Of a stretch of 64,000 nt of DNA, positions 3,096-35,738 are shown in pieces. The DNA lies in NCBI GenBank assembly GCA_015233115.1, contig JADFYJ010000012.1:15557-79556 (forward strand). The letters are read 5' to 3'. Below the pieces are notes generated by a model, which was not told the DNA's origin, made no database searches, and saw only the letters and a list, made by a program, of their open reading frames with translations. The position numbers were made by a program, and so were the translations under genes. This stretch comes from Candidatus Omnitrophota bacterium (GTDB taxonomy: Bacteria > Omnitrophota > Gorgyraeia > Zapsychrales > Zapsychraceae). Every line of letters begins with the position of its first letter. Position 1 is the stretch's first letter.

Positions 3096-4497
3096 ATTTT
3101 CCAATACAAAATTGATCAAAAATAGCGTCCAAGAGATCAGCATCGATATTGCGGCCAGTGATGGCGTCTAACGCATTGATGGCGGATTTGATGTGTTCGG
3201 AGATAAACTCGAGGGAAAGGTCCTGTGACAAACCTGACCGGGCATCTTGAATAGATTTTTGACATTCCTCTAACGAATGGATATGACGGATATTGCTGAC
3301 CAAAATTCCATGGGTGTCGACTTGAGACGAATGCCAGATTTTTTTGACAATCATGTCTTCTAATTGATCCAAACCTTCGCCAGTCACGGCGGAAATCCAT
3401 ACTTGCGGCGCATGAGGAAAAGCGGTTGAGATTTTTTTTTCGTCAACCTTATGCACCAAATCTTTTTTATTTAAAATGACAACCGCGTTTCGGTCTTTAA
3501 CTTGTTCGATGAGCGCTTCGTCTTCGGACGATAAAGGTTCACTCCCATCGAGTACCAGCAATACTAAATCCGCTCCCTTAATATACACATGACTGCGCTT
3601 GACTGCCTCTTCTTCAATCTTGTCACGCGGAGCAATCAAACCTGCGGTATCAACAAGCTGAAAAGGGATTCCTTTGATCTGGGCGGTTTCTTCAATCGGG
3701 TCACGAGTTGTTCCGGCGATATCTGCGACGATAGCTCGTTCCTGTTTAAGCAGTAAATTTAATAGGGAAGATTTTCCGACATTCGGCTTACCGCATAATA
3801 CGAGCCGGATGCCTTCTCTTAAAATGCGGCCATGATCGCTGGCGGATAATAAACCTTTAATCATAACGATAGCAGAATCCAAATGATTCTGTAACATCGT
3901 GGTCTTATCCGATGATGTATCATCCTCAGGAAAATTGACCAAAGCTTCAACTGAAACATACACACTCATGATTTCTTGGCGGATCTCGTCTAATTTTTGG
4001 GACAGGGAACCTTTGAGCTGATTATGGCTCACACGCAAATAAGCATCTGTCTTCGCCCGGATAACATCCAGTACAGCCTCAGCTTGGGCTAGATCAATGC
4101 GGCCGTTTAAAAAAGCACGTTTGGTAAACTCACCTGGTTCTGCTAATCGCCCGCCGCAATCAATCACTAACTGCAAAATTGCCCGCTGAGCCATCATCCC
4201 TCCATGACAGCTGATTTCAACCACATCTTCGCACGTATAACTTTTAGGTGCGCGCATAACTGTTAACAAAACTTCGTCAATAACCTCCCATTGATTGTGC
4301 ACCTTCCGGCCAATATCACCGTAGTGAACAGTGAAAGTCTTAAAATTCGATGGCAGAGCATTATTTTTCGATCGAAATATTTTATCCGCAATCGGCAACG
4401 CGTCCTGCCCGCTCAGACGGATAATGCCTAAGCCGCCCGCTCCAGCGGCAGTGGCAATGGCGACAATTGTGCCTTCTAAACCTTTGTACTGGTACAT
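3094..4497 (-). CDS. mnmE: tRNA modification GTPase MnmE (TrmE)
   Basis: 467 aa. N-terminal THF-binding domain, G-domain (GKPNVGKSSLLN, DTAG) and the C-terminal CIGK motif. GAGGA SD 6 nt upstream of ATG. Confidence 0.9.
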   Translation of the reverse strand: MYQYKGLEGTIVAIATAAGAGGLGIIRLSGQDALPIADKIFRSKNNALPSNFKTFTVHYGDIGRKVHNQWEVIDEVLLTVMRAPKSYTCEDVVEISCHGGMMAQRAILQLVIDCGGRLAEPGEFTKRAFLNGRIDLAQAEAVLDVIRAKTDAYLRVSHNQLKGSLSQKLDEIRQEIMSVYVSVEALVNFPEDDTSSDKTTMLQNHLDSAIVMIKGLLSASDHGRILREGIRLVLCGKPNVGKSSLLNLLLKQERAIVADIAGTTRDPIEETAQIKGIPFQLVDTAGLIAPRDKIEEEAVKRSHVYIKGADLVLLVLDGSEPLSSEDEALIEQVKDRNAVVILNKKDLVHKVDEKKISTAFPHAPQVWISAVTGEGLDQLEDMIVKKIWHSSQVDTHGILVSNIRHIHSLEECQKSIQDARSGLSQDLSLEFISEHIKSAINALDAITGRNIDADLLDAIFDQFCIGK

Positions 4498-4600
4498 ACA
4501 TTAATCCTCAAAAAACCGATTATTTTTATTACGGGCGATCAGGAGATCGACCCTACGAAAAAAATCGCGTGCATGAAAATTAGGTTTGGATTTAAATCTA

Positions 4601-4648
4601 ATCCCCGAGCGAGTTTCCTTGGCGCTTCGCCAAGGTTGTTTGAGCGAA
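4601..4648. repeat. Conserved hairpin element, copy 1 (TCCCCGAGCGAGTTTCCTTGGCGCTTCGCCAAGGTTGTTTGAGCGAAG), embedded in a locus-specific inverted flank.
   Basis: Near-identical to 10634..10681. The stem differs by a compensatory pair (G..C here, C..G in copy 2). Flanks gatttaaatctaatcc / ggattaggtttaaata are inverted repeats. Confidence 0.6.
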
Positions 4649-4709
4649 GGATTAGGTTTAAATACAAACCGTCCCAACCCACGCGCTATATCAACCGCGG
4701 CATACTCCG

Positions 4710-6054: not shown

Positions 6055-7611
6055 TTAATGTTTAAAGTGTCTCGCGCCTGTCATAACCATGACCATGCCA
6101 TATTTATCCGCGGCCTGGATGACATCGGGATCCGCGATAGAACCGCCGGTTTGAATGATGGCAGTAATGCCGGCTTTCGCGGCCAATTGCACATTATCCG
6201 TTTTAGGCAAAAACGCGTCGGAAACCATAATTGCTCCTTTGGCTTCTTTGCCGGCTTTCCGGACAGCGATATTAACGCTTTCCACGCGGCTGGTTTGTCC
6301 GCACCCTATACCGAGAACGCGCTGGCCTTTCACTAAAATGATCGCATTAGATTTAACTCCACGGACCACTTTCCATCCAAACAGCATGGACGTCAGTTGT
6401 ATTTTGGTAGGCTTTTTCTTTGATACCACTTTCAAATCTTTAGCCGTAATCTCCAGCTCATCCTTATCCTGCAATAAAAGACCGCCATACACTTTTTTAA
6501 AATCAACGCCGCCGCGCTTTAATCCTTTTAAATCAAATTCAATCAAACGCACATTTTTTTTCTGGGTCAAAATTTCTAACGCTGTTTTAGAAAATGCCGG
6601 TGCAATCACGCATTCCATAAAACCGCTTTTGCTGATAAGCTTGGCTGTCGCTTCGTCAACTGGACGGTTGACTCCGATAATTCCGCCGAATGCTGAAACA
6701 GGATCAGGCGCCAAGGCTTGTTTATAAGCCAGAGACAATTTGGCGTTCTCAGCCAAACCCGTAGGATTATTGTGTTTGATAATAACGGCCGCGGGATTCG
6801 CAAAATCTTTGATAAAATCAACCGCCGCGTTTAAATCCAAAATATTGTTAAACGATAATTCCTTGCCGTGAAGCTGTTTCAAATTCGCTAACCCGGTGAC
6901 CGGCCCTTGATCTTTATAAAAAGCGGCTTTCTGGTGAGGGTTCTCGCCATAGCGTAAATCCTGGACTTTGGTAAAATCAAACGCGATTTTCGACGGTAAG
7001 GTTGCTTCTGAAATTTTGGCCTCCAACATGCGTTCCGACAAAAACGACGCGATCGCCGAATCATACGCGGCAGTCCGCGCATAAACTTCCTGAGCTAAAA
7101 TAAAGCGAGTCGAATCTGCTACCACTCCTTTATTTTGTTTTAATTCTGCTAATACAGATTCATAACGGTTGGGATTGCAAATGACTGTCACACTGCGGTA
7201 ATTTTTCGCGGCAGAACGCAGCATAGACGGCCCACCGATATCAATATTTTCAATCGCGTGTTCCAAGGCGATCTTTTTATCTTTAATAACCTCTTCAAAC
7301 GGATATAAATTCACAACCACCAAATCAATCAGTCCGATACCATGCGCCGCAACCTGGGACATATGTTCCGGGTTATCCCGCAAGGCCAAAAGCCCGCCAT
7401 GGATTTTTGGATGCAAGGTCTTAACCCGTCCGCTCAACATTTCCGGAAAACCCGTGTAATCAGAAACCTCGATAACAGAAATTCCCGCGGAACGCAAAGC
7501 TAATGCCGTGCCTCCGGTGGATAAAATTTCTACTCCCAATTCCCGCAAACCCTTTACAAACGGGACTAATCCTGTTTTGTCGGAAACACTGATCAATGCG
7601 CGCTTTATCAT
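6055..7611 (-). CDS. purH: Bifunctional AICAR transformylase / IMP cyclohydrolase
   Basis: 518 aa. MGS-like N-terminus (ALISVSDKTGL...STGGT) and an AICARFT C-terminal domain, conserved throughout. Confidence 0.9.
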   Translation of the reverse strand: MIKRALISVSDKTGLVPFVKGLRELGVEILSTGGTALALRSAGISVIEVSDYTGFPEMLSGRVKTLHPKIHGGLLALRDNPEHMSQVAAHGIGLIDLVVVNLYPFEEVIKDKKIALEHAIENIDIGGPSMLRSAAKNYRSVTVICNPNRYESVLAELKQNKGVVADSTRFILAQEVYARTAAYDSAIASFLSERMLEAKISEATLPSKIAFDFTKVQDLRYGENPHQKAAFYKDQGPVTGLANLKQLHGKELSFNNILDLNAAVDFIKDFANPAAVIIKHNNPTGLAENAKLSLAYKQALAPDPVSAFGGIIGVNRPVDEATAKLISKSGFMECVIAPAFSKTALEILTQKKNVRLIEFDLKGLKRGGVDFKKVYGGLLLQDKDELEITAKDLKVVSKKKPTKIQLTSMLFGWKVVRGVKSNAIILVKGQRVLGIGCGQTSRVESVNIAVRKAGKEAKGAIMVSDAFLPKTDNVQLAAKAGITAIIQTGGSIADPDVIQAADKYGMVMVMTGARHFKH

Positions 7612-7636: not shown

Positions 7637-7785
7637 TAAGTCACAAAGACACAAAGTCACAAGGTCACAAAGGCAAATAAAGATAAAAGAATTAAAAACT
7701 AAAAAATCAAATCATTCGCTTTTTTAGTTTTTTTTATAAAATTTTTCCTTTGTGACCTTGTGTCCTTGTGACGCTGTGACCTTGT
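7637..7785. repeat. Inverted arrays of a 9-nt periodic repeat (GTCACAARG family) bracketing a ~65-nt AT-rich core; likely purH promoter region.
   Basis: Left arm gtcacaaagacacaaagtcacaaggtcacaaagg (7640-7673). Right arm cctttgtgaccttgtgtccttgtgacgctgtgaccttg (7747-7785) is its imperfect reverse complement. Confidence 0.7.
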
Positions 7786-7796
7786 AAAAAATAAAA

Positions 7797-7827
7797 AAGG
7801 GGCAATAAAAATATATTGCCCCCAAAT
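7797..7827 (-). terminator. Intrinsic terminator downstream of rpsU
   Basis: ggggcaat / attgcccc stem with an 8-nt loop, followed on the minus strand by a U-run (ttttttatttttt). Confidence 0.5.
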
Positions 7828-7840
7828 TTACTTAAACACC

Positions 7841-7999
7841 TTAATGTTTTTTTGCTTTATGACGTTTTTTTTCTGACGGTTTAGAGTAAAAACGGCGTTC
7901 TTTTAACTCCATTAAAAAACCGTCTTTCATACAAGCTTTTTTAAAAAGGCGCATAGCCTTTTCAAAATTCAATGAATCATTAACTTTTACTTCAATCAC
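7841..7999 (-). CDS. rpsU: 30S ribosomal protein S21 (bS21), GTG start
   Basis: 52-aa frame, so absent from the >=60-aa ORF track. VIEVKVNDSLNFEKAMRLFKKACMKDGFLMELKERRFYSKPSEKKRHKAKKH matches the S21 consensus (ALRRFKk.C.K.G.l.E.rrR.fYEKPSE.rKR). SD AAGGTGGTGA upstream of the GTG at 7999. Confidence 0.75.
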   Translation of the reverse strand: MIEVKVNDSLNFEKAMRLFKKACMKDGFLMELKERRFYSKPSEKKRHKAKKH

Positions 8000-8073
8000 G
8001 CGAAATCACCACCTTAAGATATTATTTATTTTGTGACAATGTAACAGTGTAACAGTGTGACAATGATTAAAAA

Positions 8074-8376
8074 CTATATCGCGCTCGCGCCGGTTTGGCC
8101 ATCGCGGATGCGGATTATATTCGACATATCAATTACGGCGATTTTTCCGTCGCCGGTAACACCGGTCCGGGCATACTTGCGGATCGTCTCGACAATTTTA
8201 TCTACTTGAAATTCATCCGCGTAAATATCCAGCTTCATTTTTTCCTGAAGGCCGTTGCGATGATGCCCAAATCCTTTCGCTTCAGTCACAGTCAATCCGC
8301 CAATGCCTGAGTCTTCCAGAGCTCGGAATACTTCTTCGAATTTTTCTTTTCTAACGATCGCTTCGATCTTTTTCAT
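8074..8376 (-). CDS. Nitrogen regulatory protein P-II family
   Basis: 100 aa. MKKIEAIVR...GLTVTEAKGFGHHRNG...DGKIAVIDMSNIIRIRDG matches GlnB/GlnK signatures. No adjacent amt or glnA. Confidence 0.8.
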   Translation of the reverse strand: MKKIEAIVRKEKFEEVFRALEDSGIGGLTVTEAKGFGHHRNGLQEKMKLDIYADEFQVDKIVETIRKYARTGVTGDGKIAVIDMSNIIRIRDGQTGASAI

Positions 8377-8517
8377 AATAACGCCTCTTTTCTAACCCTT
8401 ACGCTTTTCACCAATCGCTTTTTCTTCCCTCATCCATCATTTCCGTACTCTGTACTCTCTACTCTATACTTCTTTTCCACGATTGGGTCGATATAGTAAC
8501 ACAAAGAAAAAATACGG

Positions 8518-9190: not shown

Positions 9191-9370
9191 GTTAAGTCAC
9201 AAGGACACAAGGACACAATGTCACAAAGAATAAAAAAAATTAAAACAAAACACTCAATAAAATCATAAAATTAAATTATAAAAAAATTGCGATTTGTTTA
9301 TATTTCCCAAATCGCCATTTTATTTTTCTGATCCTTTGTGACCTTGTGACATGTGACTTTGTGACCTTGT
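9191..9370. repeat. Second locus of the GTCACAARG inverted repeat arrays around a ~100-nt AT-rich core (nth promoter region).
   Basis: Left arm gttaagtcacaaggacacaaggacacaatgtcacaaag. Right arm cctttgtgaccttgtgacatgtgactttgtgaccttgtc. Confidence 0.7.
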
Positions 9371-10569: not shown

Positions 10570-10633
10570 GCTTGCCCCCTTTTAATTAAACCTAAAGTTA
10601 CATTTAAAATTTTGCGAAATTGGCTTTTGTGTA

Positions 10634-10681
10634 TTCCCGAGCGAGTTTCCTTGCCGCTTCGGCAAGGTTGTTTGAGCGAAG
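10634..10681. repeat. Conserved hairpin element, copy 2 (TTCCCGAGCGAGTTTCCTTGCCGCTTCGGCAAGGTTGTTTGAGCGAAG).
   Basis: Matches copy 1 at 4601..4648 except for the compensatory G/C swap in the stem. Flanked by inverted repeats cttttgtgtatt / aatatacaaaag. Confidence 0.6.
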
Positions 10682-10723
10682 AATATACAAAAGTTAAATT
10701 CGTAAAATTTTACTTCTGCCAAT

Positions 10724-11626: not shown

Positions 11627-11730
11627 AAATAATCCTTTTCGCTTTGTTTGAATATCTTCGGTTGATGGTTTTTAGTTTTTGGTCAATGATCTCGTAATCA
11701 ATCGCTTTTCTCAGTTACTCTGTTATTCGC

Positions 11731-12840
11731 TCACTTTGTTACTTTAAATTTCTCCCCTACCGCAATTCTTTCTTTTAACGGCGGATGATCATAAAAAAAT
11801 AATTTTTCCATGAGCGATGGATTCTCTTTGGCTAAATTCATCTCTCCCAGTTTTTTCATAAGAGAAATAAAATCCGCCGGCTTTTGCGTCATGGTCAGGC
11901 AAAACAAATCCGCCTGCTTTTCCAAATACCGGCTGAAAGCGTTCAGCGGAATGGCCGTGGCCAAACTGAACACCACGAAGGCTACCGTGATCATGGGCAA
12001 AAACGCGATATCATCAATCCCCCTTAAATGAAAAGCCCCGACTGAATAATTCAAAAATAACGCAATCAAATAAAATCCCACAAAAATGACGATCCCGTTC
12101 ACGATCAACAATTTAAAAATATCCCGATGTACATAATGCCCTAATTCGTGAGCTACCACCGCCTCGATTTCATCAACAGTGTATTGGTTTACCAATGTGT
12201 CCCCTAACACGACCCGGCGGGTACGGCCTATGCCACAAACAAACGCGTTAGCTTTTTTAGTTTTTTGCGACATATCAATCATGTAAACATCTTGTAAAAA
12301 AACTTTACATTTCTTGAACATGTCAAAGATGCGATCCTTTAAAGACGCGTTATTGATCGGCACATATTTGTAAAAAATCGGAATAATAACATTCGGCGTG
12401 ATCTTGGCCATGATGACCGCCATAAAAACCCAAAATATCCACGCGCAGATCCACCAACCAGAAGGAAAATGTCTCAAGAAAAAATATACGACTTCCACCA
12501 AAACCACGACCATCACTAAACCTAATGCCGACTGTTTGAGATCATCCGTCCACCATTGAAAAAAATTTTGGTTAGATAACTGAAATTTGTGTTCCCAGAT
12601 ATATCCGAGGAAGAAATTAAGCGGAAGATGCAAAAGATATAACAGTGACGAGAATAAAAAAACATACAGCCCATTCGCGATCCAAAAGTTGGACGATATG
12701 ACAAAAGTCCAATTACGGACGGTCAAACTCCAGCCCGCAAAGAAAAAAATCATTAAAAACGCGAAATCCAAAAATAACCCGGAAAAAAACATCCGGTTTT
12801 TAACGCGATGATATTGATCAGATCGAGCCGCTGGCATCAT
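11731..12840 (-). CDS. M48-family zinc metallopeptidase (HtpX/Ste24-like), polytopic membrane protein
   Basis: 369 aa. N-terminal TM helices and HELGHYVHRD (HExxH). ATGA overlap with the upstream TPR gene. Confidence 0.7.
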   Translation of the reverse strand: MMPAARSDQYHRVKNRMFFSGLFLDFAFLMIFFFAGWSLTVRNWTFVISSNFWIANGLYVFLFSSLLYLLHLPLNFFLGYIWEHKFQLSNQNFFQWWTDDLKQSALGLVMVVVLVEVVYFFLRHFPSGWWICAWIFWVFMAVIMAKITPNVIIPIFYKYVPINNASLKDRIFDMFKKCKVFLQDVYMIDMSQKTKKANAFVCGIGRTRRVVLGDTLVNQYTVDEIEAVVAHELGHYVHRDIFKLLIVNGIVIFVGFYLIALFLNYSVGAFHLRGIDDIAFLPMITVAFVVFSLATAIPLNAFSRYLEKQADLFCLTMTQKPADFISLMKKLGEMNLAKENPSLMEKLFFYDHPPLKERIAVGEKFKVTK

Positions 12841-13253
12841 ATATCGGTTGAATCCTCGACCATAATCTTATTTTTCAACCCACCTAAATAAGACTGGAAT
12901 CTATAATCTTTACGCAAATTATGCAAGTCTTCATCTTCTTGTAAAAAAGCAAAATCATCATACCCGCAAAGAATCGCCTTTTTAATGGTCTCAAGCGCCA
13001 AATCCACATAATTGAGCAATGAATAACTGCACGCTAAATTATAAAGGATATACGCGTCATCTGACCGCAATAAAGCCAGTTTCTCGTCAATCTTGAGACC
13101 CGCTTCAAACTCACCACTGAGCGTATAAACATCGCCGAGCGCGATCAGCGCCTCAATAAAATCAGGGGTTCTCTGCAATATCCCCTCATAAAACTTTTTT
13201 TCAAACTCGACGGCCTTTTTCTTCATTCCTCGTGCCATAACAGCCTCCACCAT
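12837..13253 (-). CDS. TPR-repeat protein
   Basis: 138 aa with helical-repeat periodicity (ALIALGDVYTLSGEFEAGL...LYNLACSYSLLNYVDLA). Confidence 0.4.
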   Translation of the reverse strand: MVEAVMARGMKKKAVEFEKKFYEGILQRTPDFIEALIALGDVYTLSGEFEAGLKIDEKLALLRSDDAYILYNLACSYSLLNYVDLALETIKKAILCGYDDFAFLQEDEDLHNLRKDYRFQSYLGGLKNKIMVEDSTDI

Positions 13254-14408
13254 TTATTTTAAAAACTTTTTAACCCGCGCCATCGCTTCTTTAAGAGCTT
13301 CAAAACTCGACGCGTAAGAAATACGAACATGTCCTTCTGCCGACGGGCCAAATGCCACACCCGGCACCAATGCTACTTTTTGTTCCTTAAGCAACTCCTG
13401 GGCAAAATCAATGGATGTCATAGATGTTTTTTTAATCGACGGAAAAGCATAAAACGCTCCTTGCGGCATATGACACTCCAGGCCCATTTCATTCAAAGAA
13501 TCAACGATAAATTGACGGCGGCGCTTGTATTCCGTCTTCATGGCCGCCACACTTTTATGGCCATTCACCAATGCTTCTTCCGCAGCCATCTGCCCATTAA
13601 TCGGCGCGCACAAGATAGTGTACTGATGAATCTTGGTCATACCCGCAATGACATTTTCCGGGCCGCACGCGAACCCGATCCTAAAACCAGTCATAGCGTA
13701 TGCCTTAGAAAAACCATTCATATAAATAACCCGCTCTTTCATTCCCGGCAAGGTAGCCAAAGGCACATGGTCAAAATCATACGTCAGATCATCATAAACC
13801 TCATCGCTGATTACCACCACATTGTTTTTTTTAATAACTTTAACTAAAGCCTCCAACTCTTTGCGGTTATATGACGCTCCGGTCGGATTAGACGGATAGT
13901 TGATCATCAAATATTTAATGCCCTCTTTTTTACAGATCTGGTCTAATTCTGCTGGCAGCATTTTAAAATGATTTTTTGTTTGAGTGACCATGCGGATCAC
14001 CCGGCCGCCTGCCATGTCAGCCAAAGGAGCGTAGGACACATAACAAGGCTCAGGCACTAGCACCTTATCACCCGGATTAATCAGAGTCCGCCAAGCTAAA
14101 TCAAGGCCTTCGCTGACGCCAACCGTAATCAATATTTCGGTTTCCGGATCATAGACCAAATCGAATTTGTGCTTCAAAAAATGCGCGATTTGTTTGCGGA
14201 GCGAGATTAATCCCTTATTCGACGTATAAGACGTATACCCTTCTTCATAAGCTGTAATCGCCTTTTCCCGTATGTTCCACGGCGTCACAAAATCAGGTTC
14301 ACCCACGCCAAGGGAAATAACATCTTTCATCCCCAGAACCAAATCAAAAAATGCCCTGATCCCCGAAGGGGCCATGTCATCCACTTTTTTAGAAATCTGT
14401 ATTTTCAT
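13254..14408 (-). CDS. Class I/II PLP-dependent aminotransferase (aspartate aminotransferase-like)
   Basis: 384 aa. GEPDF, NPSNPTG-like NYPSNPTGASY, and a PLP lysine in SKAYAMTGFRIGF. Confidence 0.8.
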   Translation of the reverse strand: MKIQISKKVDDMAPSGIRAFFDLVLGMKDVISLGVGEPDFVTPWNIREKAITAYEEGYTSYTSNKGLISLRKQIAHFLKHKFDLVYDPETEILITVGVSEGLDLAWRTLINPGDKVLVPEPCYVSYAPLADMAGGRVIRMVTQTKNHFKMLPAELDQICKKEGIKYLMINYPSNPTGASYNRKELEALVKVIKKNNVVVISDEVYDDLTYDFDHVPLATLPGMKERVIYMNGFSKAYAMTGFRIGFACGPENVIAGMTKIHQYTILCAPINGQMAAEEALVNGHKSVAAMKTEYKRRRQFIVDSLNEMGLECHMPQGAFYAFPSIKKTSMTSIDFAQELLKEQKVALVPGVAFGPSAEGHVRISYASSFEALKEAMARVKKFLK

Positions 14409-14418
14409 AATATTTTAT

Positions 14419-14599
14419 AGTGACCGAGTAACAGAGTAACCGAGTAACAAAGAAAAAGCTTAAAAACCAAAATGAAACAAAAAAATAATTAAAAAACACA
14501 AACAATAAAATCTCTAATTTTTTTACATTTAAATTCTTTATCGTCAATCGTTTTTCTCTGTCACTCGGTTACTCGGTTACTCGGTTACTTTGTTACTTG
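14419..14599. repeat. Inverted arrays of a 9-nt periodic repeat (GTAACCGAG family) bracketing a ~100-nt AT-rich core.
   Basis: Left arm tagtgaccgagtaacagagtaaccgagtaacaaag. Right arm ctctgtcactcggttactcggttactcggttactttgttacttg. Confidence 0.7.
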
Positions 14600-14601
14600 T
14601 T

Positions 14602-15087
14602 TTAATATGATATATTTAACCTTTTGCTCGTTTCTTTTTGCTTAAGCACGTGGCCGTCTTCTTTGTATTTTTTCAAAAGAAAATGCGTAGCCGTGCCGCG
14701 CACATTTTCCATAGGAGAAAGCTTCGACGCAATAAAGTTAGAGACTTTTTGAATATTTTCTCCCTCGACAATCAACAATAAATCATACGTCCCAGATACC
14801 AAATAGCAGCTCACCACTTCCGGAAAACTATAAATCCTTTCCGCGATATGATCAAACCCTACATCCTTTTGAGGAGTAACACTGACTTCTATTAAAGCGC
14901 GTACAAACGAATTGGATTCGCGCACTAAATCATGATTGATCAAAGTTTTGTACTGAACAATCACGCCGCTTTGTTCATATTTCTTAATCGCTTTTTGCAC
15001 CGCATCTTTTGATTTGCCGGTCATTTTCGCGATCTCGACCGGAGTCACGCGAGCGTCACCTGCCAATATGTCTAGTATTTCATCCAT
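14602..15087 (-). CDS. Lrp/AsnC-family transcriptional regulator
   Basis: HTH (ILDILAGDARVTPVEIAKMTGKSKDAVQKAI) and a C-terminal RAM/AsnC domain. Start moved to ATG 15087 (MDEIL, SD GGAGA), 11 nt after the upstream stop. The track start at 15171 overlaps the upstream CDS. Confidence 0.7.
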   Translation of the reverse strand: MDEILDILAGDARVTPVEIAKMTGKSKDAVQKAIKKYEQSGVIVQYKTLINHDLVRESNSFVRALIEVSVTPQKDVGFDHIAERIYSFPEVVSCYLVSGTYDLLLIVEGENIQKVSNFIASKLSPMENVRGTATHFLLKKYKEDGHVLKQKETSKRLNISY

Positions 15088-17685: not shown

Positions 17686-17811
17686 GAATTCTCCCTTACA
17701 CTTTATTTATATTTCAATTTAAAACAAAATCTATAAAAAATTAATATATTTTTAACAAACAGGCAAATAGTTATAAAAGGCGATAGGCCATAGACGATAG
17801 GTTTAAAAAAA

Positions 17812-18144: not shown

Positions 18145-18407
18145 GTAACGTATGTAGCATGTAGTATGTGGTATGTAGTAAAAAAATAAAATCCAAAAAC
18201 GAAAACAGCAAAAACAATACAGCTTAAAGATTTTTAAAAGATGAAATGTAGCACGCAAAAACTAAAATGTAAAATAAAAATTTTTATCTAAAAATATCAA
18301 AAAATATATTTAATTTTTTTAAAACAGGAAGCCCCGTAAATTACCGCTACGCCTTTTAAACCAATCAATTTTTTTACCACATACCACCTGCCACATACGA
18401 CATACTA
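18145..18407. repeat. Inverted arrays of an 8-nt periodic repeat (ATGTAGYA family) bracketing a ~195-nt AT-rich core.
   Basis: Left arm ttgtaacgtatgtagcatgtagtatgtggtatgtagta. Right arm ccacataccacctgccacatacgacatacta is its imperfect reverse complement. Confidence 0.65.
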
Positions 18408-21951: not shown

Positions 21952-22203
21952 ATGATAGCAGCAAATATGGTGGCTTTGGGCGCAAGAATACCTGCCGGAC
22001 TTAAAAATAATATTATGACCTATTGTGATCGCCATGGAATCAAACTTAGATTTTTTGTTGAACAAGCGCTCGAAGAGAAACTCCGGGAAGAACAGGAAAC
22101 ACAAGAAGACAATGCCGAAATTGATAAACGGCTTAAGAACGCCCACTATGCCGGAACCGAAGAACTAACAAAGTATATATCCTTACGAAAGAAACGGGCT
22201 TAA
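21952..22203 (+). CDS. Ribbon-helix-helix (CopG-like) antitoxin
   Basis: Start at ATG 21952 with a perfect SD AAGGGAGGA. Small helical protein whose stop overlaps the downstream RelE start (TAATG). Confidence 0.6.
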   Translation: MIAANMVALGARIPAGLKNNIMTYCDRHGIKLRFFVEQALEEKLREEQETQEDNAEIDKRLKNAHYAGTEELTKYISLRKKRA

Positions 22204-22460
22204 TGTATACCGTTTTAATTGAAAAACGCGTATTAAAAGATTTAGACCATTTCCCTTGCGCCGATGTCGAACGCATTCAAGGCATTATTATCGCTTTAAA
22301 AAACGAACCCCGGCCACAGGGCGTTCAAAAACTTCGCGGTTACGCGGCACGTTATCGTGTACGGCAAGGCAACTATCGAATTGTTTACGAGATTGATGAA
22401 AGAAACAAATCCGTGCGGGTTCTGTTAGCAGGACACCGCAAAGATATTTATCGTAAATAA
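22203..22460 (+). CDS. relE: RelE/ParE-family toxin (type II TA)
   Basis: 85 aa. RelE/StbE-like motifs (KLRGYAARYRVRQGNYRIVYEIDERNKSVRVLLAGHRKDIY). Start overlaps the antitoxin stop. Confidence 0.7.
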   Translation: MYTVLIEKRVLKDLDHFPCADVERIQGIIIALKNEPRPQGVQKLRGYAARYRVRQGNYRIVYEIDERNKSVRVLLAGHRKDIYRK

Positions 22461-22466
22461 AAAAAA

Positions 22467-28627: not shown

Positions 28628-28962
28628 GCGACTAGATTGCCTTCGGCTTCGCCTGCGGATTGATTGCTTTTCTAAACTTACGTTTTGGAAGCAATCAATA
28701 GAACTCGCAAAATCCTACGGATTTTTGCGAAGCAATCTGTGGGCCAGCACCAAATATAAAAGCCCCCTCTCAAAAGAGGGGTAACATTTGAATTTTAACT
28801 CGATTTCGACTCGATTACCTTCGGCTTCGCCTGCGGATTGATTGCTTTTCTAAACTTACGTTTTGGAAGCAATCAATAGAACTCGCAAAATCCTACGGAT
28901 TTTTGCGAAGCAATCTGTGGGCCAGCACCAAATATAAAAGCCCCCTCTCAAAAGAGGGGGCT
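28628..28962. repeat. Perfect tandem duplication (period 178 nt; ~156-nt unit plus 22-nt spacer) of a hairpin-rich element, each unit ending in a terminator-like hairpin.
   Basis: Units 28628-28783 and 28806-28961 are identical over ~145 nt (ccttcggcttcgcctgcggattgattgcttt...gccccctctcaaaagagggg). Internal 11-bp stem gattgattgctt/aagcaatcaat and stem cgcaaaatcc/ggatttttgcg. Confidence 0.7.
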
Positions 28963-28971
28963 TTTATATTT
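28931..28971. terminator. Bidirectional intrinsic terminator after tRNA-Asp
   Basis: gccccctc-tcaaaa-gagggggc stem-loop with U-runs on both strands (ttttatattt), immediately 3' of the tRNA-Asp CCA end. Confidence 0.6.
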
Positions 28972-29048
28972 GGCGGACCCGACGAGATTTGAACTCGCGA
29001 TCTCAAGCGTGACAAGCTTGCATGTTAACCAGACTACACCACGGGTCC
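28971..29048 (-). tRNA. tRNA-Asp (anticodon GTC), CCA encoded
   Basis: Cloverleaf folded by hand: acceptor GGACCCG/CGGGTCC, anticodon stem CAAGC/GCTTG with loop TTGTCAC, T-loop TTCAAAT. 78 nt. Confidence 0.85.
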
Positions 29049-29075: not shown

Positions 29076-29148
29076 TGGGCGGTGCTGGGCTCGAACCAAC
29101 GGCCGCCTGAATGTAAGTCAGGAGCTCTACCAACTGAGCTAACCGCCC
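29076..29148 (-). tRNA. tRNA-Val (anticodon TAC), CCA not encoded
   Basis: Acceptor GGGCGGT/ACCGCCC, D-arm GCTC-AGTTGGTA-GAGC, anticodon stem CCTGA/TCAGG with loop CTTACAT, T-loop TTCGAGC. 73 nt. Confidence 0.85.
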
Positions 29149-33209: not shown

Positions 33210-33290
33210 GTTCTGTCCCCTATAAAAAGCTTCTAATCTTATATGACCAATATAATGTAGCAGTGTAACAATGTGACAATGCCAAGAACA

Positions 33291-34771: not shown

Positions 34772-34811
34772 TTAAAATCCTTTCTGCGTTCTACTCTATA
34801 CTCTGTACTTT

Positions 34812-35738
34812 TTACTCCTTAGCCCCTAACGCCAGATATAATACCGCCATGCGTACAGCTACGCCGTTGGTGACTTGTTCTAAAATTAATGATTGCGGGC
34901 CGTCAGCTACGTCGGAGGAAATTTCTATGCCGCGGTTCATGGGGCCGGGATGCATGATGAGAAGCTCTTTTTTCCCTTTTTTCAATCTTTCCGCATTTAC
35001 ACCGAACTCCATCGCGTATTCTCTAATCGAAGGAAAATAATTTTCTTTTTGCCTTTCTTTTTGAATACGCAGGAGCATTAAGACATCGCTGCGTTTAATC
35101 ACTTCCTCAACGCTATAGCAAACCTTGGCTCCTAATTTTTCAATTCCAAACGGGATCAAAGTTGACGGTCCGCATACCGTGACTTCCACGCCCATTTTCG
35201 TCAAGCCCACCACATTGGAACGGGCCACGCGCGAATGCATGATGTCGCCGACAATTCCCACTTTTATCCCTTCCAGCTTGCCTAATTTTTCTTTAATGGT
35301 AAACATATCCAGAAGAGCCTGCGTTGGATGAGACCGGCAGCCGTCTCCCGCGTTAATAATAGACGATTTTAAATTGTTAGCCAATATCTGCGGCACGCCT
35401 GATGACCCATGCCGCACCACAATCGCGTCCACATTCATGGCTTCCACATTCCGCGCCGTATCTAAAATCGTTTCGCCTTTAGACATCGAGCTAGAACTGA
35501 CCGCGATATTAATCGTGTCCGCGGAAAGCCGCTTGGCTGCCAGCTCAAAAGATGTCCGAGTTCTCGTAGACGGTTCAAAAAATAGCATCACCACAGTTTT
35601 ACCCCTTAAAGCCGGCACTTTTTTAACATCCCGCGAAGACACTTCCTTAAATGATTTGGCTGTATCCAAGACCTGCTGAATTTCCTCTTTGGTCAACTCT
35701 TCTACATCCAGTAAATGACGTTTATTCCATTCCACCAT
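34812..35738 (-). CDS. pyrB: Aspartate carbamoyltransferase catalytic subunit
   Basis: 308 aa. STRTR carbamoyl-phosphate binding motif and an HPGP-type aspartate-binding motif. Confidence 0.9.
   Translation of the reverse strand: MVEWNKRHLLDVEELTKEEIQQVLDTAKSFKEVSSRDVKKVPALRGKTVVMLFFEPSTRTRTSFELAAKRLSADTINIAVSSSSMSKGETILDTARNVEAMNVDAIVVRHGSSGVPQILANNLKSSIINAGDGCRSHPTQALLDMFTIKEKLGKLEGIKVGIVGDIMHSRVARSNVVGLTKMGVEVTVCGPSTLIPFGIEKLGAKVCYSVEEVIKRSDVLMLLRIQKERQKENYFPSIREYAMEFGVNAERLKKGKKELLIMHPGPMNRGIEISSDVADGPQSLILEQVTNGVAVRMAVLYLALGAKE

Follow-up and report, generated by a model that had tools for sequence, protein, structure and literature searches.

Between an Lrp/AsnC-family regulator gene and a class I/II aminotransferase gene of a Candidatus Omnitrophota bacterium lies a pair of inverted tandem-repeat arrays set around an AT-rich spacer, which raises the question of what kind of element this is, how it came to be there and what it may do. 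The sequence comes from a metagenome-assembled genome; the window is the whole 64-kb stretch of DNA that was analysed, and all coordinates are window positions. An inverted pair of arrays (the arms) together with the core between them is called a bracket here, and the one in question is bracket C. Bracket C is one copy of a lineage-specific, intergenic population of long simple sequence repeats (long SSRs), of the short tandemly repeated repetitive (STRR) type, which are paired and inverted. It is a new example of a known, functionally unexplained repeat class that is able to fold into long hairpins. The locus is arranged as follows:

14602-15087, minus strand: Lrp/AsnC-family regulator gene, upstream of bracket C
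14409-14601: bracket C intergenic region, between two minus-strand genes
14551-14598: distal arm of bracket C, five 8-nt units, directly past the Lrp stop codon at 14602-14604
14458-14550: core of bracket C, 93 nt, AT-rich, 19% GC
14419-14457: proximal arm of bracket C, four 8-nt units
13254-14408, minus strand: class I/II aminotransferase gene, downstream of bracket C

A preliminary description, made from the sequence alone, had placed two arms and an AT-rich core of about 100 nt at 14419-14599 between these genes. The arms are present and read as quoted, and the core has 93 nt with a GC content of 19%, compared with 41% for the whole window. In a repeat search, the arms at 14419-14457 and 14551-14589 are each 39 nt long and 90% complementary, with 93 nt between them. 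The unit had been taken as 9 nt long; Tandem Repeats Finder (TRF) gives a period of 8 nt (GTNAC plus three bases), with GAGTAACA x3 at 14419-14449 and ACTCGGTT x4.4 at 14563-14597, and the longer unit is wrong, since the 9-mers that were quoted have one base in common where they meet. On the minus, gene-sense strand, the Lrp stop codon is followed by AACAA and, at a distance of 5 nt from the stop codon, by the distal arm, which reads GTAACAAA GTAACCGA GTAACCGA GTAACCGA GTGACAGA G, then AAAAA. The core opens with the motif GAAAAACGATTGA, common to a locus at 11.7 kb, and runs from an A-rich half into a T-rich half. The proximal arm reads TTTTTC TTTGTTAC TCGGTTAC TCTGTTAC TCGGTCAC and ends 10 nt before the aminotransferase ATG at 14408; TATAAAATATT stands just before the ATG, and no Shine-Dalgarno sequence lies between arm and ATG. 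An element of ~190 nt fills the gap, from 5 nt past the stop codon to 10 nt before the start.

The predicted RNA fold of the region has an energy of -64.5 kcal/mol, compared with -31.7 ± 4.1 kcal/mol for shuffled sequences (z = -8.1), and none of 200 shuffles folds as well. The window holds two tRNAs and nothing else in Rfam 15 at the gathering score; a relaxed threshold adds plant miRNA-precursor hairpins alone, far below threshold. An assembly artefact was considered and rejected, because a sequencing read is longer than these arrays and the architecture is found again in many assemblies made independently.

Bracket C belongs to a population of arrays. With a strict periodicity detector, the window yields 8 arrays and each of 30 Markov shuffles yields 0; a less stringent TRF run roughly doubles the number, for a total of ~16. 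All of them have period 7 or 8, typically with ~4 units, and all 8 strict arrays are non-coding, as are all but one weak case in the fuller set, with non-coding DNA making up 8.8% of the window. Thus, the arrays are recurrent, intergenic and of period 7 or 8, and not the random low-complexity sequence that the preliminary description had kept in mind as the outcome that would undo its view. The core GTNAC, followed by three variable bases, is present in every period-8 array, and GTRACNNN x4 with at most one mismatch has 6 matches in the window against 0 expected. The units of the window arrays (AGTAACCG, GTCACAAG and similar) are free of G-tracts. At least six unit families coexist within 36 kb, the number claimed earlier, in a list that itself has seven; the further claim that each family occurs at two or more loci holds for 1650/11660, 2161/17779, 8032/33254 and 8445/34790, and fails for ATGTAGYA, which occupies two arms of a single locus. 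The other arrays, with one gene that helps to place them, are the following:

1646-1695 and 1707-1735: bracket E, a period-7/14 array (TTGATGG TTCTTGG) with its inverted partner adjacent
2161-2190: single period-7 array, CTATGGC, with an inverted sister at 17778-17801
7638-7672 and 7750-7785: arms of bracket A, unit GTCACAAG, around a core of 77 nt and 17% GC
7841-7999, minus strand: rpsU (ribosomal protein S21, 52 aa), a previously unlisted open reading frame (ORF) with a GTG start and a good Shine-Dalgarno sequence
8032-8062: single period-8 array, between a stop codon at 8074 and rpsU
8445-8470: single period-7 array, GTACTCT, with a sister at 34792-34817
9198-9238 and 9336-9370: arms of bracket B, same unit family as bracket A
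11698-11733: degenerate half-array, on the sense strand GTGAGCGA ATAACAGA GTAACTGA, then GAAAAGCGATTGA
17778-17801: single period-7 array, directly past the stop codon of the tRNA-binding gene
18150-18180 and 18375-18405: period-7 arms of bracket D, unit ATGTAGY
33254-33281: single period-8 array, sister of the 8032 array, preceded by a terminator-like hairpin
34792-34817: single period-7 array, taking up an operon junction of 40 nt, where the stop codon, the array, a Shine-Dalgarno sequence and the ATG follow one another

Five loci of the window (A, B, C, D and E) are inverted pairs with one unit family each; in 5/5 both arms carry the same family, a point that the preliminary description had raised as a check. 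The four brackets that were folded have z-scores of -5.8 to -8.1. Arrays start 3-17 nt past a stop codon, with the exception of bracket A, which follows the rpsU terminator, and at seven loci they end 10-33 nt before a start codon. The ribosome-binding region is left free because of this last spacing, and ribosome-binding site and start codon are outside the stem in every case. The suggestion that the unit period follows the position relative to the start codon is not borne out, as period-7 and period-8 arrays both end 10-33 nt upstream. Bracket A lies between the intrinsic terminator of rpsU (7798-7823, minus strand), beginning right past its T-tract, and the purH start at 7611. Bracket B lies between the era stop codon and the start of the endonuclease III gene (about 9176), and its core holds a hairpin and then a T-run. 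Bracket D is upstream of the tRNA-binding-domain gene (start 18132), and the unit of bracket E is found again at 11660-11692. The half-array at 11698-11733 is directly past the M48 peptidase stop codon and ~90 nt upstream of the pfkB start; its part at 11713-11733, rightly noticed earlier as a relative of bracket C, is 88% like the bracket C arm, and the adjoining motif GAGAAAAGCGATTGA is common to both loci. The 8032 and 33254 arrays are near-copies, in which even the order of the unit variants is equal.

The origin of bracket C can be approached through its relatives. The closest one compared (L008, GCA_015233195.1) has 11 genes in the same order, with an aminotransferase 84% identical and an Lrp/AsnC orthologue 89% identical to those of the window; there, 2 nt separate the stop codon of the Lrp gene from the ATG of the aminotransferase gene, without arrays. 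The same gap measures 10 nt in L001, 72 nt in L009 and about 130 nt in L002, none with arrays, and no arrays were found in the six relative loci (L001, L002 and L008-L011). Across the 11 syntenic genes, the array-bearing gaps are wider in the window than in L008: the gap that holds the 17778-17801 array has 126 nt against 64 nt, and another array-bearing gap has 104 nt at a place where L008 has a gene. Bracket C is thus a recent, lineage-specific gain of ~190 nt at a formerly tight operon junction, because the syntenic gap in L008 has 2 nt and is free of arrays and the other relatives have none. Compared with the empty site in L008, a TAAAA target-site duplication is possible at bracket C, in surroundings that are AT-rich; none is evident at brackets A and B.

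Two places in L008 also differ from the window in gene content. Between its M48 peptidase and pfkB genes, L008 has a gene of the YjbQ family, and its era and endonuclease III genes are separated by a gene of 1406 aa; both extra genes are absent from the window. These extra-gene regions are at 12677-13096 and 15410-19630 of L008, and the window has array-bearing intergenic DNA at both places.

The architecture is not confined to this genome. The strict bracket pattern GTAACNNNGTRACNNNGTRAC-N{85,115}-GTYACNNNGTYACNNNGTYAC has 0 matches in the shuffled window, and we estimate that chance alone would give far fewer than one match in the collection; the pattern matches at least 120 loci in metagenome contigs. 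Among the matches listed, to which the counts in this paragraph refer, the brackets form 56 clusters by core similarity on contigs with a GC content of 0.32-0.71, the largest cluster having 45 members from rumen and gut samples. None of the 120 matches is fully contained in an ORF of 100 aa or more, the arms often abut or overlap stop codons, and in several cases Pfam matches confirm that the flanking genes are genuine. The contigs that bear brackets carry 79 further arrays of period 7 (43) or period 8 (36), compared with 16 for all other periods from 5 to 12, and an arm most often has four units (54 of 99 arms). Arm lengths differ between close strains: L452 has one unit more than L378 in both arms, and L421 has one unit more than L370 in one arm. 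At locus L455, which has the unit family of bracket C, the order is terminator, arm, core of ~100 nt, arm and gene start, as in bracket A; at L416, (GGTAACTA)3 and (ACCTAGTC)9-10 surround a bidirectional terminator of canonical form, with cstA on one side and an AP-endonuclease-fold gene on the other. No Rfam family was found in sixteen metagenome loci.

Viral contigs give a measure of how common single arrays are. GTRAC x4 arrays occur there at no fewer than 120 loci, and the control cores CTRAG and TCRGA match 115 and 110 times; therefore, single octamer arrays of any unit are common, and nothing shows the GTNAC core to be special beyond this genome. The bracket pattern and its two controls match 1, 0 and 0 times in viral contigs, numbers too small to compare. 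An orientation rule based on stop codons in three frames (GTRAC contains TAA/TGA) was also considered; its first counts of 32:8 and 24:3 were confounded by the definition of the ORFs, a fair recount gave 13:10 and another count was also weak, so the rule was dropped.

Some of these sequences deserve description in their own right. The rumen and gut element consists of 4+4 GTAAC/GTGAC octamers around a core with the palindrome AGAATATATAATAATTATAATTATTATATATTCT and is highly conserved; its members are L348, L353, L359, L361, L371, L377, L386, L458, L461, L463 and about 35 more. It is found in larger stretches of non-coding DNA beside genes for HU-HIG DNA-binding proteins and N6/N4 DNA methylases, surroundings that are typical of Bacteroidales mobile elements. 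The IMG/VR contigs L012-L131 carry octamer arrays of many units, each 4-unit pattern having about 110-120 or more matches, and many of these arrays lie within 100 nt of contig ends, probably as assemblies break at repeats. L022 has an inverted GTAAC pair at 3169-3501 with a core of about 270 nt.

The features of the window match published long SSRs (PMC4692102, PMC4679880, PMC2670836), and nothing points to a dedicated system for generating palindromes, as the preliminary description had imagined. Heptanucleotide-rich long SSRs are a recognised and phylogenetically sporadic class (Mrazek 2007, as summarised in PMC4679880). At bracket C, we find the marks of long SSRs and STRR sequences: a tandem unit of 5-11 nt repeated beyond chance, an intergenic position and a sporadic distribution. 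The GGGAATC heptamers of Xanthomonas are a close counterpart: they have ~4 units, lie close to or overlap the upstream stop codon and form 70-75 pairs in convergent orientation that are capable of stem-loop formation, and they vary in length between species, most arrays being transcribed (Rehm et al. 2015, PMC4692102). There is one such family per genome, 83% conserved between species and interpreted in terms of G-quadruplexes (PMC4692102). The arrays of the window have in common with them the intergenic location, ~4 units, the position at stop codons and inverted pairs, and bracket C has the paired arrays of one unit and the 4-5 units beside a stop codon; differences in length are seen in the metagenome orthologue pairs (L378 and L452, L370 and L421). 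The units, in contrast, are 8-nt GTNAC or varied 7-mers without G-tracts and not the G-rich GGGAATC, at least six families coexist, an AT-rich core separates the arms, and the nearest relatives are without arrays.

In cyanobacteria, an STRR heptamer array forms a hairpin between hupS and hupL, for which transcript stability, translational coupling or termination has been proposed (PMC2670836). Tandem repeats of ~7 nt in intergenic DNA, some of them able to form hairpins between co-transcribed genes, are common to STRR sequences and to our arrays, whereas STRR sequences belong to another phylum and have other units. The TAACTGA repeats of Beggiatoaceae mostly stand within a few nt upstream of starts without a Shine-Dalgarno sequence (MacGregor 2015, PMC4679880); they have 2-6 copies, are spread sporadically over marine Beggiatoaceae, Cyanobacteria and Bacteroidetes, and form one family in fixed forward orientation, with 169 direct sets and one inverted (PMC4679880). 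Short intergenic arrays near starts and a sporadic spread are again shared, and the unit GTAAC(C/T)GA resembles TAACTGA; here, however, the period is 8, the arrays form inverted pairs and the arm beside the ATG is GTTACTCG, the reverse complement of a TAAC-type unit. In the literature, we found no systematic description of STRR sequences as brackets around a spacer of ~100 nt.

Among mobile elements and operators, other likenesses can be drawn. Bracket C has the terminal inverted repeats (39 nt, 90%) of a miniature inverted-repeat transposable element (MITE) such as Correia, ERIC or RUP and lacks a conserved internal sequence. The Correia/NEMIS MITEs of Neisseria are intergenic insertions of 100-150 bp with inverted ends and promoter elements, whose stem in the transcript is cut by RNase III; their terminal repeats are unique and 26 bp long, the core is conserved, the target duplication is TA, and nearly identical copies number in the hundreds. 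The analogy lies in the possible mechanism, and our elements differ in that their ends are tandem 8-mers, their cores are not conserved and no duplication is clear. Foldback transposons of Drosophila and other eukaryotes have terminal inverted repeats of short tandem subrepeats around an unrelated middle; this terminal-array layout is alike, in elements that are eukaryotic and kilobase-sized. Ribbon-helix-helix operators, such as the 8-bp met boxes of MetJ, the 7-bp heptads of omega and the ACTC+4 boxes of ParG, have 2-10 tandem units of 7-8 bp, direct or inverted, beside promoters and with the cognate regulator gene nearby. The tandem 7-8-bp units are similar here and the many unit families are not, and no candidate ribbon-helix-helix regulator gene was found beside the array loci.

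How do such arrays arise, and what might they do? We propose that they arise and stay alike by slipped-strand or template-switch copying, which would account for the period of 7-8 nt, the usual ~4 units, the strain-to-strain differences in copy number and the families common to several loci. Some dispersal of the arrays by copying is likely, because a motif beside the arm (GAGAAAARCGATTGA) is common to bracket C and the 11.7-kb locus, TTGTGACTTA(A)CAAAATTT is common to the proximal ends of brackets A and B, and the order of units is common to the 8032 and 33254 arrays. The element would act most likely in RNA: the junction would be transcribed, and the arms would pair into a stem of ~39 bp that leaves the start region single-stranded. 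Such a stem would mark a transcript boundary by protecting or terminating the upstream message; alternatively, it would be a processing site for a double-strand-specific RNase that uncouples the two cistrons. A promoter or leader for the gene downstream is probably provided by the polar, AT-rich spacer, whose A-to-T polarity, in the sense of the downstream gene, is found in 4/4 brackets with an AT-rich core. A motif shared between loci, GAAAARCGATTGA, has 16 matches in the window against 10 expected, which is suggestive and no more. It is exact at 11698-11710 and 14544-14556 and has up to 2 mismatches at 7712, 8411 and 16070; all sites are on the minus strand, the copies are intergenic and on the gene-sense strand, and at two loci they come right after the distal arrays. 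The motif may be a promoter element of the -35/UP type or the remnant of a copied element. That bracket C and its like are hairpin-forming SSR pairs that mark transcript boundaries is the function we predict tentatively, giving it somewhat less than an even chance. In its favour are the fold z-scores, the start codons and ribosome-binding sites outside the stem, the polarity of the core, the preponderance of G:U over A:C mismatches in the window, the published Xanthomonas and hupS-hupL cases, and a link with transcript ends. This link is seen in the arms that abut or overlap stop codons, in the terminator enclosed at L416 and in the extra unit of both L452 arms. In the metagenome clusters with both neighbouring ORFs within 150 nt, among the matches listed, 25 are convergent, 9 co-directional and 3 divergent. 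Unit numbers of the two arms are correlated, again among the matches listed (rho 0.55, with 62% equal against 35% on permutation).

Several observations weigh against this function. In 14409-14601, a scan found neither a terminator-like site nor a U-tract, and a consensus scan found no convincing sigma-70 promoter; a GC-rich hairpin with a U-tract is missing at bracket C, while the bracket B core and L416 contain or adjoin one. (A promoter in the bracket C core, suggested by eye from a T-tract with strings like TATAAT and from a TATAAA that precedes the ATG by 5 nt, was considered and is not relied on.) Bracket A and L455 lie downstream of an intrinsic terminator; thus, the two arms may seldom share a transcript. 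The enrichment of metagenome brackets between convergent genes is based on simple ORF calls, some of them in high-GC contigs. The arm complementarity is family-specific and not locus-specific, contrary to the locus-specific palindromes of the preliminary description: the A distal arm and the B proximal arm pair at 88%, and the B distal arm and the A proximal arm at 100% over 18 nt, compared with 85% and 89% within A and B. Locus-specific co-evolution of the arms is therefore rejected, as cross-locus pairing equals or exceeds pairing within a locus, and the arms may pair because they have a common origin and not because pairing is selected. The two arms do not mirror each other's unit variants, and most of their mismatches are transversions. 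On the sense strand, G:U outnumber A:C mismatches by 9:3 in the window, which is not significant (p about 0.07), and the co-directional metagenome set gives 27 against 21, among the matches listed, with no excess; the G:U asymmetry thus yields no firm signal of selection at the RNA level and is not decisive. The correlation between the unit numbers of the two arms is inflated by the one 45-member family.

A rival explanation is that the repeat is neutral or selfish, that is, a by-product of slippage and template switching, or a non-autonomous foldback or MITE-like element, kept where it is harmless and without function. The near-identical arrays at 8032 and 33254, 25 kb apart, imply copying, and arrays are absent from every relative examined; copy number differs between close strains, several unrelated repeat types have widened intergenic regions of the same genome, locus-specific co-evolution of the arms and a clear G:U signal are both lacking, the arrays follow no rule of orientation towards the genes, and gaps between convergent genes are classic safe havens for repeats. 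Against neutrality stand the single unit family of both arms in 5/5 brackets, the recurrence of ~4 units across phyla (PMC4692102) together with the correlated copy numbers of the arms, and the constant direction, A to T, of the core with respect to the gene downstream. The MITE-like form is further opposed by cores that are no more alike between A and B, which share an arm family, than shuffled sequences (z = 1.5), other core pairs having weak similarity in sequence of biased composition, and by the lack of a convincing target-site duplication. We consider a functionless repeat somewhat unlikely. An inverton, in which the arms are recombinase sites and the core flips to switch the downstream gene, would have the right outline, as inverted repeats surround an AT-rich segment of ~100 nt directly upstream of genes. 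Yet no gene for a recombinase was noticed close to the loci, the genes that would be switched are housekeeping ones (purH, endonuclease III, aminotransferase), the orthologous metagenome pairs (few, and compared by eye) all have one core orientation, tandem 8-mers are atypical recombinase sites and the enrichment between convergent genes does not fit; such a switch is very improbable.

Other explanations assign the arrays to a binding protein. As DNA operators, the units would be coated by an oligomerising protein around a promoter in the core, with repression, looping or a roadblock as the result. A period of 7-8 bp and 4-5 units recall ribbon-helix-helix operators, GTNAC is pseudo-palindromic, the bracket C arms have ACTC boxes at 8-bp spacing, bracket A and L455 each occupy the stretch from a terminator to a gene start, a place where one would look for a promoter, and the polarity of the core is compatible with a promoter or leader. 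We nevertheless regard operators as unlikely: at least six unit families in 36 kb would need as many binding specificities, no promoter is expected between convergent genes, where brackets are enriched, close relatives keep the same genes without arrays, no convincing promoter is found in the bracket C core, and the sole ribbon-helix-helix-like gene of the window is, by eye, the antitoxin of a toxin-antitoxin pair. A translational role through protein binding to an RNA motif has been proposed for the TAACTGA repeats of Beggiatoaceae (MacGregor 2015, PMC4679880), and our arrays could by analogy be single-stranded motifs in a 5' leader that drive or tune translation without a Shine-Dalgarno sequence. 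The proximal arm of bracket C indeed ends 10 nt before an ATG that has none, arrays end 10-33 nt upstream of starts at seven loci, and the unit GTAACCGA resembles TAACTGA, whose arrays are mostly just upstream of starts. It is the arm on the start side, however, that reads GTTACTCG and so has the TAAC-type unit in reverse complement, a Shine-Dalgarno sequence is present at several genes preceded by arrays (A, D and 34792), and the inverted partner and the enrichment between convergent genes are left unexplained, which makes this leader motif quite improbable.

A bolder version of the transcript-boundary function is that paired 4-unit arrays are a selected boundary element across phyla, whether an insulator in RNA or DNA, a terminator or a processing signal, with arms that could have any unit sequence and would thus be coded by family. 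We regard this as a long shot. On this assumption, the ~4 units, the period of 7 or 8, the position abutting stop codons and the arms of matched length may reflect a common recognition factor or templated copying. The preference for four units without a G-tract argues against the G-quadruplex explanation for Xanthomonas and points to a sequence-independent rule; if the cross-phylum boundary element were real, that explanation would be overturned.

The window contains further elements beside the arrays. A second type of intergenic element, at 4575-4680 and 10605-10712, has a GC-rich core of ~46 nt, CCCGAGCGAGTTTCCTTG[G/C]CGCTTCG[C/G]CAAGGTTGTTTGAGCGAAG, which forms a UUCG-loop hairpin with a compensatory change of G/C to C/G between the two copies. 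Its arms are inverted, locus-specific and non-repetitive (32 nt and 84% complementary at 10605/10681); it has no Rfam match, and the orthologous gap in L008 has 10 nt. A 178-bp unit is repeated x1.9 with 98% identity at 28629-28959 and adjoins tRNA-Asp (28971-29048) and tRNA-Val (29076-29148); each copy has several internal hairpins and a terminator-like stem at its end. At ~21952-22465, on the plus strand, a two-gene cassette encodes, by eye, a putative ribbon-helix-helix antitoxin, the only gene of this kind noticed in the window, followed by a toxin of the RelE/ParE type. The last 27.5 kb of the window are taken up by a single ORF of 9164 aa (36495-63989, minus strand); giant genes are a known trait of Omnitrophota.

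Of the unexplained repeats in some bacterial genomes, long SSRs with 7-8-nt units are among the most abundant. The Omnitrophota arrays are a recent arrival at tight operon junctions, pair by unit family and follow the same rules as those of Xanthomonas and cyanobacteria, despite unrelated units. These shared rules, together with the spread over well over a hundred metagenome loci, argue against explanations tied to a particular sequence, such as G-quadruplexes, and for a structural or mutational rule. If this rule is functional, the arrays would be a common device for marking transcript boundaries; if it is neutral, they would provide a clean case of repeat-driven intergenic expansion.

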